A stretch of DNA of 22,921 nt from a virus, in IMG/VR virus record IMGVR_UViG_3300006903_000126, positions 1-22,921 of that record. One strand, given 5' to 3'. The notes below the pieces were generated by a model that had not been told where the DNA came from, ran no database searches, and worked only from the letters and a program-made list of their open reading frames with translations. Position numbers and translations under genes: made by a program. Positions within the stretch are counted from its first letter, which is position 1. Each line of letters begins with the position of its first letter. Positions 12,207 through 16,181 of this stretch are shown here, piece by piece.

Positions 12207-12754
12207 GGACCGAAGGTCCGGTAGCCCTGGACGCCCATCATTGGCAGGTACGCTCGCGTGTACTTGGCGAACGTGGCCGGGCTGGCCCCGGTCGACAGCG
12301 GCATCGTGATCCCGGCCTGCTCGAGCAGACCGAACGCCTGGAGGATGCCAGCCGCAGGCGCGACGCTTAGGACTGTTAGCGTCGTCACGGTGTCACACAC
12401 CATCGCCATGTAGTACGTGCCTCGCGCGAGCACGGTATCGGTGACGTCGAGAACCTGGAGATCCGTCGCCCCCGCTGCTGCGGTGGTTCCCTTGGACACC
12501 AGCCGGGTTCCGTCCTCAGCGTAGATCCCCAGATCGATGTTGCCCGAGGCGACGCCGATCGCTGCGAACAGCTTGGTCACGGTCACCGGCTCGGGCACGT
12601 AGAACGGCACGAAGATCACGAGGTTGGCGGCAGGCCACGCCGCTGCCGCCCATCCCGTCATGGAGGCGCGGTAGGCGGCGACCCCGAGAGATTGCTCGGT
12701 TGTCGGCGTGATGATGACTTCGCCGGGTCTGGCGAGCTCCGGGGCGAACAGCAT
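12203..12754 (-). CDS. Hypothetical beta-type protein (183 aa), the compact paralog of 10998..12206
   Basis: TAATG junction with the upstream gene (12752..12756). WPAANL lies at 12620..12637. No family recognised. Confidence 0.6.
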   Translation of the reverse strand: MLFAPELARPGEVIITPTTEQSLGVAAYRASMTGWAAAAWPAANLVIFVPFYVPEPVTVTKLFAAIGVASGNIDLGIYAEDGTRLVSKGTTAAAGATDLQVLDVTDTVLARGTYYMAMVCDTVTTLTVLSVAPAAGILQAFGLLEQAGITMPLSTGASPATFAKYTRAYLPMMGVQGYRTFGP

Positions 12755-14064
12755 TAGTAGATCTCGAGCAGATGGAGCTTCGCGTCGCCCGTCGCCGTGT
12801 AGGCAGCCGATGTGATGCCCGTGATTGCATTCGTCACCGGCAGGAAGATCGAGGCTCCCGGATCGAGCACGTAGTGCGTGGCATAGACCGCGGTGCCGCC
12901 GCTGATGTCGAGCGCCACCCCGACGGTCTGCTTATTCGTAATCAGCACGCCCTTCCGCTGCGATCTGGCAGAGATGACCGTCGTCGACGTGTTGCTGATC
13001 GCCACCTGGCTGGCGGCATTGGTCCCAGCTCCGACCTCGTAGCCGACCTGCGCGCCTGAGCGCAGATACCAGGACTGAACGGCATCGCCGTCGGCGCTGA
13101 CCGCGGACGGTGCAGCGGCGCTCGCGTAGCCACCGATCAGCAGCGGGTTGCTGCCGGTGCCGACCGCATCGTGATCCGCGAGCCCCTGCACGCCTGCGCG
13201 GACGTACCAGGGTGCCTGCGATCCAGAGACCTTGACGGTGGCGGTGCCGGAGGCGTAGACCGCGTTGACCCGGTAGCGGACCTGGCGGATACCCTGGCAC
13301 GGCACCATGTACATGTCGTTCACGGCCGGGACGAACGACCCGCTGATGAACGATGGCGGCAGGCCCATCTTGATGACTCCGGACGCCGTCACCCAGTTGG
13401 TGTCGTCCCCGGTCACCTCAAAGATCATGGAGCCCGGCGTCGTACCGATGGTCGTGACGTGGAAGATCATCGAGGCCGCGCCATCGGTGACCACCGTCAC
13501 GGCGTTGGCGGTGTTCGTAGCGGCCACTCCGGCCGGGTTCGTCTTGCGATCCCAGCCCGGCCCGATGCCTGCCGCTGGAATCCCGGTATCGACGTTCGGC
13601 GCTGCATCGAGCGCGGTGATCGACCGGGAGCGATCCCAGGTCGTGCCGTTGAACACCGAAGACCACGACTGGGTATTCAATCCCGCCGTGGCGGTGAACG
13701 CATCGGTCGGCGTGTTGGCGGTGGCCGCGCCGGTACCGTCGTAGCCGGATGCGATGAACACGCCGAGTCGACCCTTGGAGTCGAAGTGGGCGTCGACCCG
13801 ATCCCCTGCCGACACGCCGGTCGGATTGACGGCGGTGACCTTGCCACCGACCTTCATCGGGTTCCCGCTGTCGACGGAGTCATGCGGCGTGGCTCCGCCG
13901 ACAGCGAGTGCTCCGACCGCGCTGACGCCTGTCTCGAGGACACCGCCAGCCGCGACTCCGCCGCCCGAGGCCGGGAATACGATCCCGCTGACCTCGATCA
14001 GGTCAGTACCGCCTCCAGTGTCGTAGTCGAGCTGGCGCTGTTCCCCAAACTGGGCATCAGCCAT
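12754..14064 (-). CDS. Hypothetical fibre- or decoration-like protein (436 aa), paralog of 14071..15543
   Basis: Starts MAD... and shares the DTGG(G)T N-terminal motif with its neighbour. It carries two copies of the ~45-aa module repeated in that neighbour (13753..13887 and 13033..13176). Gly/Ala/Thr/Ser/Val-rich. Confidence 0.6.
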   Translation of the reverse strand: MADAQFGEQRQLDYDTGGGTDLIEVSGIVFPASGGGVAAGGVLETGVSAVGALAVGGATPHDSVDSGNPMKVGGKVTAVNPTGVSAGDRVDAHFDSKGRLGVFIASGYDGTGAATANTPTDAFTATAGLNTQSWSSVFNGTTWDRSRSITALDAAPNVDTGIPAAGIGPGWDRKTNPAGVAATNTANAVTVVTDGAASMIFHVTTIGTTPGSMIFEVTGDDTNWVTASGVIKMGLPPSFISGSFVPAVNDMYMVPCQGIRQVRYRVNAVYASGTATVKVSGSQAPWYVRAGVQGLADHDAVGTGSNPLLIGGYASAAAPSAVSADGDAVQSWYLRSGAQVGYEVGAGTNAASQVAISNTSTTVISARSQRKGVLITNKQTVGVALDISGGTAVYATHYVLDPGASIFLPVTNAITGITSAAYTATGDAKLHLLEIY

Positions 14065-14070
14065 TGGTCA

Positions 14071-15543
14071 TCAGACCTCGTCCCAGTACCCGGTGCTGTA
14101 GACGTCGGCCGCGACCGATGCGTCCTTGTTGGTGATCCTCACCCCGAAGCCCGTCGTCGCGTCGGAGCTGGCCCGGGTGATGAAGGTGTCATCTGGCGCA
14201 CGCCACTGGAGGAGCTGCCCGGCCAGGGCGAAGGCCACGACCCGAGCCGTGAATGAGCCGGTCAGGATCGTACCGATTTCGATCTTGATCGGGACGGTCG
14301 AAGTGACGTCCGCACCCCAGAGCTGACCCGTCTTGCCGGAGGTGACGTAGTGCGTCAGGGTGACGTTCGCCCCAGCGCCCAGGGCGGCTGAAGTCTGCGT
14401 GCTGAAGAACGCCGAGGTCGGCTTGAGCGTGTAGAACGCCGCACCGTCGGTCAAGCGGACCGGGAGCGGGTTCGTCGCACCTGGCGCCGAGCCGACGATC
14501 TGGTTGACGTTGATCGAGCTGTTCGCTGCCGGAGTGACCGCGACGGACCCCTGGTCCGAGGCAATGACCACCGGGAGGCTGTTCGCCGAGGTCTTCGACC
14601 CGATCGTGATGAGCGTTCCTGCCGAGGCCAGGTTCACCACGGGCGAACCATTCCGCAGCATCCACATGGCGACCGCGTCGTTGTTGGCCGACACGTCTGA
14701 AGGTGCCGCCGCATTGGCGAGGCCCATGCTCATCGTGCCGGTCGGCGTCGACGTCGCTGCGGCGTCTCCGACGTACTGCGTGCCGCTGCCGAACGACGTG
14801 ATCTGGTTGCCCGAGCCATCCACGATGGCGACGTTCAGCGCATCGTTCGCCGCCAGGTCACGGACTGTCGCCAGGGTCGTGCCATCCGAGATGCGGACAT
14901 GCTGGGCCGTGGCGATGGTCTGCCCGATGTTCGTGAGCAGCGTGCCGTTGGCGGCGATGTTCACGACCGGCGACCCGTTGCGAAGCATCCACATCGCAAC
15001 CGCGTCGTTGTTGGCAGAGACGTCGGTCGGTGCCGCCGCATTCGCCAGGCCGACGGCCATCAGGCCAGTCGGAGTGGCTGTCGCCGCCGCATCCCCAACG
15101 TACTGCGCGGCCAGCGCAAGCGCGCTCTGGTCCGAAGCGATGACCACGGGCAAGCTCGAAGCCATGGCCTTCTGGCCGATGGTGATGAGGGTGCCCGCCG
15201 AAGCAAGGTTCACGACAGGTGAACCGTTCCGCAGCATCCACATCGCGACCGCGTCGTTGTTGGCGCTGACATCGGACGGCGCTGCCGCGTTGGCAAGGCC
15301 CGAGATCATCAGCGTGTTCGGAGTCGCCGTCGCCGCAGCATCACCGACGTACTGGCCCAGCAGGTCAGCCGTCAGGGAGCCTGAGTTGTCCGTCACCGGC
15401 ACGGCGACGCCCGAGGCATCGACCGAGAGGCGACCCGCGGCCGAAACCGCGGCCTCGTTCGTCCCGCCCGTATCAATGAGCTTCCCCCGGACGAACTCGG
15501 TAGTAAGTGTCTTGACCGCGAGGCCAGTTGAGTTGTCAGCCAT
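14071..15543 (-). CDS. Hypothetical fibre- or decoration-like protein with three tandem 76-aa-type modules (490 aa)
   Basis: GAAGGAG is 7 nt before ATG 15543. The internal repeats begin QYVGDAAAT... No family recognised. Confidence 0.65.
   Translation of the reverse strand: MADNSTGLAVKTLTTEFVRGKLIDTGGTNEAAVSAAGRLSVDASGVAVPVTDNSGSLTADLLGQYVGDAAATATPNTLMISGLANAAAPSDVSANNDAVAMWMLRNGSPVVNLASAGTLITIGQKAMASSLPVVIASDQSALALAAQYVGDAAATATPTGLMAVGLANAAAPTDVSANNDAVAMWMLRNGSPVVNIAANGTLLTNIGQTIATAQHVRISDGTTLATVRDLAANDALNVAIVDGSGNQITSFGSGTQYVGDAAATSTPTGTMSMGLANAAAPSDVSANNDAVAMWMLRNGSPVVNLASAGTLITIGSKTSANSLPVVIASDQGSVAVTPAANSSINVNQIVGSAPGATNPLPVRLTDGAAFYTLKPTSAFFSTQTSAALGAGANVTLTHYVTSGKTGQLWGADVTSTVPIKIEIGTILTGSFTARVVAFALAGQLLQWRAPDDTFITRASSDATTGFGVRITNKDASVAADVYSTGYWDEV
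14551..15354 (-). repeat. Three tandem protein-level repeats: R1 15127..15354, R2 core 14932..15105 plus a divergent 51-aa spacer, R3 14551..14778
   Basis: R1 and R3 are 66/76 identical at the protein level. All three copies contain an identical NNDAVAMWMLRNGSPVVN. The nucleotide copies are diverged at synonymous sites (see findings). Confidence 0.9.
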
Positions 15544-15814
15544 CGACAGGCTCCTTCGGTGCCTTGACCATCAGTTTCAGGTTGGTGTCGTTCTCGGCGA
15601 TCTTGGCCGTGAGAGCTGCCTCATTGGCGAGAATCTTCCGAGCCTCTTCATCCAGTTCCTCGTTCGCGAGCTCGGCTCGCGCGAGGTTGACCTGCTTCTG
15701 ACCGTCAATCTGGGATAGGCGAGCCTGCCCCTGCTTTATCGTCTGTCGATGCTCGAGCGTTGCGAGCTCGAGGCGACGTCGTTCGATCGTGTAGTTGGGA
15801 CCCGCGTCAGCCAT
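15536..15814 (-). CDS. Small coiled-coil-like protein (92 aa)
   Basis: ATG 15814 with GTGAGGT upstream. Heptad-like charged sequence (RRRLELATLEHRQTIKQGQARLSQIDGQKQVNLARAELANEELDEEARKILANEAALTAKIAEN). 8-nt overlap with the next gene. Confidence 0.55.
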   Translation of the reverse strand: MADAGPNYTIERRRLELATLEHRQTIKQGQARLSQIDGQKQVNLARAELANEELDEEARKILANEAALTAKIAENDTNLKLMVKAPKEPVDG

Positions 15815-15821
15815 CTGAACC

Positions 15822-16181
15822 TCACTCAGCGAAGATGGTGCCTTCGTAGTCGCCGGACACGGGACCCGTGTTCTCGACCCGGAGAGCGATGACTGAACCC
15901 GCCGCGATGACCTCTGGGTTCGGCATGACCAAGTAGCCCTCGTTCACGCGGCTGAAACGAGCCTTGATCCCCTCCAGGGGAGCGTTGTCCACTTCGACCC
16001 ACATCTCGCCGTCAGTGGTTCCATGCACCTTGAAGCCACGCAGCTTCCGGGTGCCAGCCACCGTGCTAACGATGGTCTGCACACCACTCGGCGCCAGACC
16101 AGCGATGGCTCCCCGGACGTTCTGCGCGTTCGGAGCCCCACCGCTGCTGCCACCAGCGACAGGCTGGACGATGGCGGTCAT
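15822..16181 (-). CDS. Hypothetical 119-aa beta-rich protein directly after the capsid gene, a candidate head decoration protein
   Basis: ATG 16181 has GAGGA 5 nt upstream. The track's longer form (to 16358) would overlap the capsid gene by 100 nt and encodes an Arg/Ser/Pro-rich out-of-frame-looking leader. Function is inferred from position only. Confidence 0.55.
   Translation of the reverse strand: MTAIVQPVAGGSSGGAPNAQNVRGAIAGLAPSGVQTIVSTVAGTRKLRGFKVHGTTDGEMWVEVDNAPLEGIKARFSRVNEGYLVMPNPEVIAAGSVIALRVENTGPVSGDYEGTIFAE

Follow-up and report, generated by a model that had tools for sequence, protein, structure and literature searches.

A repeat module held nearly constant in peptide and saturated at silent sites in a putative modular surface fibre of a metagenomic tailed phage

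Introduction

Two groups of described phage proteins come closest to the protein analysed here, a 490-aa product of the minus-strand open reading frame (ORF) 14071..15543 in a viral DNA stretch of 22,921 nucleotides (IMG/VR record IMGVR_UViG_3300006903_000126, positions 1 to 22,921; the whole stretch is called the window below). The protein contains three modules that start with QYVGDAAAT at aa 64, 147 and 256. The first group, fibres of the lambda Stf type and collagen-like fibres with a C1q/TNF-like jelly-roll, shares with it a repetitive, low-complexity shaft rich in Ala, Gly, Ser and Thr for which AlphaFold2 (AF2) gives no monomer fold, a compact C-terminal jelly-roll and a mosaic exchange of modules between phages, and the BFVD Foldseek matches of the window protein fall in these classes. 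With the second group, the capsid fibres and decoration proteins (phi29 gp8.5 head fibre, T4 Hoc, the turret of Haloferax tailed virus 1, HFTV1), it shares a gene position immediately downstream of the major capsid gene, together with two small proteins, and the presence of repeated modules. A chain of the HFTV1 turret (8qpg) is among the jelly-roll matches, with a target-normalised TM-score of 0.60, although this match is a generic one.

The window protein also differs from both groups. Unlike the Stf-type and collagen-like fibres, it matches none of the fibre-repeat families of Pfam or NCBIfam in sequence, its gene lies between the capsid and connector genes and not after the tape measure gene, and its termini are conserved while the middle is variable. 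T4 Hoc is built of tandem Ig-like domains, whereas neither an Ig-like fold nor a Pfam Ig match was predicted for the window protein. In contrast to the capsid-decoration systems, its gene cassette follows capsid proteins of unrelated families, so that binding to one specific capsid lattice is not obvious. We consider it likely that the protein is a modular surface fibre of a tailed phage, with modules that derive from old duplication or shuffling, have saturated silent sites and are kept by purifying selection. What is new is the module family itself; the evolutionary pattern is as expected of old, structurally constrained repeats.

Results and Discussion

Codon comparison of the three modules

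An earlier note on this DNA had proposed three modules, R1, R2 and R3, and both this layout and the window coordinates were found to be exact (Table 1). The module hidden Markov model (HMM) scores 163 bits on R1, 111 on R2 and 162 on R3, so the protein-level repeat is clearly real. The codon-by-codon comparison of R1 with R3 found 35 codons identical, 31 changed only synonymously and 10 with a replaced residue, which returns the 66 of 76 shared residues (87%) counted before, at 77% nucleotide identity; the differences at codon positions 1, 2 and 3 number 10, 9 and 33. A stretch of 42 residues, starting at aa 82 in R1 and aa 274 in R3, is the same in both copies in full, and 21 of its 42 codons differ, all of them synonymously and with an AGC/TCG serine switch among them, exactly as had been read from the letters. 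The DNA identity among the module copies is 75-79%, with differences along the whole length.

The pairwise dN/dS (ω) check proposed for the three copies found dN far below dS (ω 0.10-0.14). By the NG86 method, R1 and R3 over 76 aa give dN 0.131, dS 0.93 and ω 0.14, and the three 58-aa cores compared pairwise give dN 0.10-0.14, dS 0.98-1.15 and ω 0.10-0.12; dS is saturated, so these ω values are upper bounds. For the 42-aa stretch ω between R1 and R3 is 0.02-0.04, and the residual dN there comes solely from the two-step serine switch. The low ω, about 0.14 over the whole module and 0.02-0.04 within the 42-aa stretch, agrees with the proposed old duplication under purifying selection. For structural proteins an ω near 0.1 is nothing unusual, and the repeat pattern is thus real, not anomalous.

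The saturation was evaluated by drawing synonymous codons independently from the codon usage of the window. Under these random draws 19.8±2.9 identical codons are expected in the 42-aa stretch, where 21 were observed, and 31.9±3.6 are expected over the 66 residues shared by R1 and R3, where 35 were observed. Codon identity is therefore at the random level, and the silent sites hold no residual signal of common descent. In-register identity between any two copies extends over 17-20 nt at most, leaving no trace of a recent duplication or a conversion tract; together with the saturated dS, this upholds the earlier view that neither process accounts for the repeat.

That the repeat is an assembly artefact, a recent duplication or a gene-conversion product is extremely improbable. 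The identical gene was found in five independent assemblies (SRR5689906, SRR5584873, SRR5585387, ERZ27257998 and ERZ27257709) with 0 differences from the window over 1473 bases and with flanks that differ by at most one base. Copies that are 75-79% identical in DNA, with differences spread throughout and saturated dS, are also unlike the repeats that short-read assemblers collapse or expand. At the level of these assemblies, the artefact test that had been suggested thus returned no artefact.

The module family and its constraint

A word-indexed search detected 268 homologues, all of them metagenomic proteins, and the 120 listed (280-857 aa) have 0-7 module HMM matches per protein, so that the suggested survey of homologues finds the copy number to be labile. 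The exhaustive R3 search of 1.84 billion cluster representatives gave 416 matches at E<=1e-3, of which 107 also pass E<=1e-10; those of the 416 that are listed, 150 in number, have 1-17 stretches each and lengths of 223-2610 aa. The module is composite, with a 58-aa core and then an optional 18-aa GQK..LPVVIASDQ tail, which is also found alone. Among the matches listed, modules of other phages reach 84-86% identity to R1 and R3, which are 87% identical to each other.

Among 47 A-type modules the columns have low entropy at positions 1-12 (mean 0.49 bits) and 19-58 (mean 0.53 bits) and high entropy at positions 13-18 (1.31 bits) and 59-76 (1.4-1.65 bits). The two variable patches pointed out earlier in R1 and R3 coincide with these family-wide high-entropy positions. 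Positions 38, 40 and 46 vary together across the family, in the combinations M-M-P, Q-M-A or L/V-A-Q; the three window copies all have the M-M-P triad, and other proteins mix the variants. The triad positions lie on either side of an invariant Trp, where AF2 models a hairpin, a placement that speaks for packed side chains.

Four other phages (L007-L010) have homologues of the window protein, and the module is the best-conserved piece in every comparison with them (72-84% identity). The N-terminal segment is 55-70% identical, the C-terminal domain 52-79%, and the two small proteins encoded next to the fibre, p119 and p92, 44-65%; the capsid protein has no detectable similarity to its counterparts in these phages. 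The constraint is a property of the module family, not peculiar to the 490-aa protein. With the DNA of these phages, mean dS is 1.11 for within-protein module pairs and 1.21 for between-phage pairs, both saturated, and codon identity at same-residue sites is 0.498 versus 0.494 expected (pairwise mean over 10 module copies of 5 phages), so the modules carry no hidden constraint at the nucleotide level.

The synonymous divergence could instead have been actively favoured, if homologous recombination removes copies with long identical runs and only codon-scrambled arrays survive, a scenario that we regard as highly improbable. Efficient homologous recombination usually requires identical runs longer than the 17-20 nt found between the copies, and the labile copy number in the family would also fit. 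However, codon identity is not under the random expectation in any of the three comparisons given above (21 versus 19.8±2.9, 35 versus 31.9±3.6, 0.498 versus 0.494), and plain saturation suffices as an explanation. Modules in different phages are equally diverged though unable to recombine intramolecularly, within-array codon identity equals between-genome codon identity in the five genes examined, and the module pair of one homologue, P0006, persists at 85% nucleotide identity.

P0006 (L009 4458-6266) has two A-type modules that are 85% DNA-identical with a dS of 0.34. This pair is a much younger duplication or conversion and shows that such events still take place in the module family.

The N-terminal and C-terminal segments are each found in only about one quarter of the 235 family proteins, so the module appears as a mobile building block of several fibre contexts. 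An undescribed repeat module is thereby added to the building blocks of phage fibres, and the family is a clear case of a mosaic protein with one module that evolves far slower than its neighbours and the capsid genes. With a profile of the module, several hundred metagenomic phage proteins now annotated as "hypothetical" would be labelled fibre-like. In a search of 185,579 species genomes, just two contigs of metagenome-assembled genomes (L011 6045-6161 and L012 5340-5513; one Chloroflexota and one Pseudomonadota) and no isolate genome had the confirmed module pattern, so the module seems to be uncommon in prophages; two matches in different phyla give no indication of the host.

History of the three copies

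In the maximum-likelihood tree of 47 modules, R1 and R3 form a group with one module of P0010 (support 0.81), and R2 groups with modules of P0028, P0057 and P0069, which have the N-I/L-G-Q type continuation in common with R2 (support 0.89). The 51 aa that follow R2 had been described as a divergent spacer. The position of this segment is correct, but it is no mere spacer: it recurs in the family as a module of a second type (counts in Table 1), visible in P0002, P0003, P0004, P0008, P0009 and P0012. The closest relative among the homologues listed, P0005, has two A modules with a different insert between them. The separate grouping of R2 and the modular nature of the spacer argue for an array formed by old duplication plus module shuffling. 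Of the triplication proposed before, the old duplication stands and a single triplication in place does not, since R2 groups with modules of other phages.

It is possible, though on balance unlikely, that the three copies were acquired separately by recombination with the fibre genes of other phages; the synonymous divergence would then reflect the divergence of phage lineages and not the age of a duplication. The degree of mosaicism in the family is high, P0005 differs in module order and spacer, R2 groups with the modules of P0028, P0057 and P0069 (0.89), the P0010 module nests with R1 and R3, and within-protein dS is not below between-phage dS. However, the M-M-P triad is present in all three window copies while other proteins mix variants, and R1 and R3 are mutual best protein matches at 87%. 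Such a mosaic acquisition overlaps with old duplication plus shuffling and does not replace it; the 76 alignment columns and the saturated DNA leave the histories of duplication and shuffling inseparable further.

Fold predictions and family searches

In Pfam the best match of the 490-aa protein is RE_AspBHI_N at 19.3 bits, under the cut-off of 27, and PHROGs returned two marginal matches (E 8e-4 and 3e-3) to families of unknown function, with no single stretch passing. NCBIfam gave nothing meaningful and the PDB sequence search gave no match. The statement that the module matches no nameable repeat family therefore holds for the Pfam, NCBIfam and PDB sequence and profile searches, where nothing was significant, with marginal matches in PHROGs only. 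Fifteen long module-bearing proteins have no Pfam match over the family cut-off (one sub-threshold DUF5351 was seen), PHROGs returned no match for the eight of these that were scanned with it, and a literature search on head fibres turned up nothing that matches the module family.

The full-length AF2 model, built on a 26-row alignment, has a mean predicted local distance difference test score (pLDDT) of 55, with the modules under 50. From about aa 381 to the C-terminus the 10-residue blocks average pLDDT 72-94, most of them 88-94, and DSSP assigns eight or nine strands from aa 378, which together indicate a C-terminal beta-sandwich. This domain is always C-terminal in 54 homologues. Foldseek comparison of the domain with PDB detected Ena fibres, plant-virus coats, CBM4/16, the HFTV1 turret chain and the A-1(L) short-tail-fibre CBD; these jelly-roll matches are generic, with target-normalised TM-scores of 0.34-0.60. 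The eight-stranded jelly-roll fold class of C1q/TNF-like or CBM-like domains is thus found in the model, from about aa 378, and no subclass is singled out. The BFVD matches are collagen-like, Stf-repeat and tail-fibre proteins with the same look of an unfoldable shaft plus a terminal knob. Both Foldseek comparisons bear on the C-terminal jelly-roll and the overall fibre-like layout only.

One module with its flanks, modelled on a 54-row alignment, gave a single hairpin with pLDDT 61 and a predicted TM-score (pTM) of 0.25, so the module is not predicted as an autonomous Ig-like or lectin-like domain. All AF2 predictions were made as monomers, and a fold that depends on oligomerisation would escape them; judged from these models, the most economical reading would be a module fold that depends on other chains. 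For a beta-solenoid or triple beta-helix shaft, the low monomer confidence is compatible with an inter-chain fold and does not demonstrate one.

The 58-aa core is better conserved than the capsid proteins of the phages that carry it, and it may be asked if it is more than a filler of the shaft and has an autonomous function. As a ligand-binding or self-clamping trimer node it might recognise a target that does not vary, with the hypervariable six-residue patch 13-18 tuning the specificity and the copy number (1-7) setting the avidity of the fibre. We consider this doubtful. The target in such a case might be a glycan conserved in cell envelopes, or glycans that the phage itself makes with the sugar cassette nearby.

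Several known classes were compared and rejected. Tandem Ig-like domains of the Hoc type do not fit the module pLDDT (under 50 in full length, 61 isolated), the one hairpin and the lack of an Ig match in Pfam. A variable region of a diversity-generating retroelement does not fit differences that are mostly third-position synonymous, spread over the whole module and involve all bases; general family scans of the window's large ORFs gave no match to a reverse transcriptase. For WD40, which gave the one sub-significant motif in the profile search of PDB, the module-core profile VSADgDAVaaWaLRNGSqVvnLa weakly resembles the blade consensus SASDDKTVKLWNRNGQLLQTLTGH, and the likeness fits a strand-turn-strand hairpin, also drawn by AF2 for the module. 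The repeats score about 6.5 bits each with individual E-values of 60-100, the summed E-value reaches 0.005 only on designed consensus propellers, and the three module copies lie 83-109 aa apart, in contrast to six or more blades of about 42 aa. With these repeat E-values and only three copies, membership among WD40 beta-propellers was rejected.

Fibre identity and proposed architecture

The fibre identity is supported by several observations. In phages whose capsids belong to different families, the genes p119, p92 and fibre form a conserved cassette behind the capsid gene. The jelly-roll predicted with confidence at the C-terminus comes after a long stretch for which AF2 finds no monomer fold. 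The BFVD matches are of the collagen-like, Stf and tail-fibre kinds, and the podovirus homologue has lectin/glucanase and pectate-lyase-type neighbours. The trio lies directly downstream of the capsid gene also in L007-L010, and the capsid belongs to PHROG 752 in the window and to PHROG 3922 in L009 and L010, so the movement of the cassette seems not to be tied to the capsid gene.

From these results we infer the identity of the protein as a fibre, its oligomeric state, its attachment site and the cause of the constraint. The conserved N-terminal segment (aa 1-63), probably the virion-attachment part, would attach the protein to the virion. The shaft would be assembled from interchangeable short modules, the QYVGDAAAT module among them, and the conserved C-terminal jelly-roll knob would terminate the protein, which is probably oligomeric. 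The three copies probably stem from old duplications, module shuffling or both. Their synonymous sites have since been fully randomised, and purifying selection holds the module peptide nearly constant wherever the module occurs. The constraint may be structural, with most residues needed for tight packing, probably between chains, and with patches 13-18 and 59-68 free to vary and probably exposed. The position between the capsid and connector genes, in a siphovirus-type operon, favours a fibre on the head or neck; the podovirus context of an 846-aa homologue favours a fibre on the tail.

Several points weigh against this reading. The fibre assignment is argued from architecture and gene position. 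The combination of a conserved C-terminus with a variable middle is the reverse of the usual pattern of receptor-binding proteins, so a role of the knob in host recognition is not evident. The AF2 confidence of the module is low in the full-length model (under 50) and in isolation (61). The module tree has just 76 columns and supports of 0.81-0.89, and saturated dS makes the ω values only upper bounds and the duplications undatable.

Gene neighbourhood

The features of the 490-aa protein and of the adjacent genes are collected in Table 1.

Table 1. Segments of the 490-aa protein and neighbouring genes, with window positions
Feature	Positions	Strand	Evidence
N-terminal conserved segment, aa 1-63, MADNSTGLAVKTL...	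15355..15543	-	phmmer: 59/235 family proteins, N-terminal in all
Module R1, A-type, aa 64-139, 58-aa core and 18-aa GQKAMASSLPVVIASDQ tail	15127..15354	-	Codon comparison; module HMM
Module R2 core, A-type, aa 147-204, continuing into an N-I-G-Q type tail	14932..15105	-	Codon comparison; module HMM
Second module type, aa 205-255, NIGQ...VRISDGT...NVAIVDGSGNQITSFGSGT	14779..14931	-	91 stretches in 67/235 family proteins
Module R3, A-type, aa 256-331	14551..14778	-	Codon comparison; module HMM
Linker with recurrent PGATNPLPVRLTDGAAFY motif, aa 332-374	14422..14550	-	118 stretches in 59/235 family proteins
C-terminal beta-sandwich (jelly-roll), aa 375-490, ending YSTGYWDEV	14074..14421	-	AF2 model; Foldseek; homologues
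p119, first gene of the p119-p92-fibre cassette after the capsid gene	15822..16181	-	44-62% identical across L007-L010
p92, small cassette protein	15536..15814	-	Homologues of 86-91 aa in the same position in L007-L010, 47-65% identical
436-aa neighbour, modular paralogue	12754..14064	-	Module HMM matches aa 293-369, 33 bits

The gene order of the phage is terminase, portal, a sugar-modification block that includes a GT4 glycosyltransferase, prohead protease, major capsid protein and then p119, followed by p92, the 490-aa protein, its 436-aa paralogue and the genes of 183, 402 and 295 aa, the last of them GH16-like. Beyond these lie further small genes, a Neck1/tail-completion-like protein and a 1632-aa protein, which has no family match in profile searches and which, by size and position, we take to be the tape measure. 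The stop of p92 overlaps the start codon of the fibre gene by 8 nt.

The 436-aa neighbour has diverged module cores at aa ~55-105 and ~293-369, both of which align, and a similar MAD... N-terminus. Its two cores bring the number to five across two adjacent genes of the phage.

A 404-aa antisense ORF, 14504-15718 on the plus strand, spans the whole repeat region. It was rejected as a gene, since the saturated synonymous sites of the sense frame argue against an overlapping coding constraint and for a by-product of high G+C.

The phage-database search gave a single match, the 846-aa protein of a metagenomic podovirus (L001, MW202554.1, 7399-9939), annotated as "glycoprotein repeat domain-containing protein". 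Its gene comes directly after the portal gene and before genes of the concanavalin-like lectin/glucanase and pectate-lyase/polygalacturonase types. The glucanase neighbour in the podovirus echoes the GH16-like gene of the window, located four genes downstream of the fibre.

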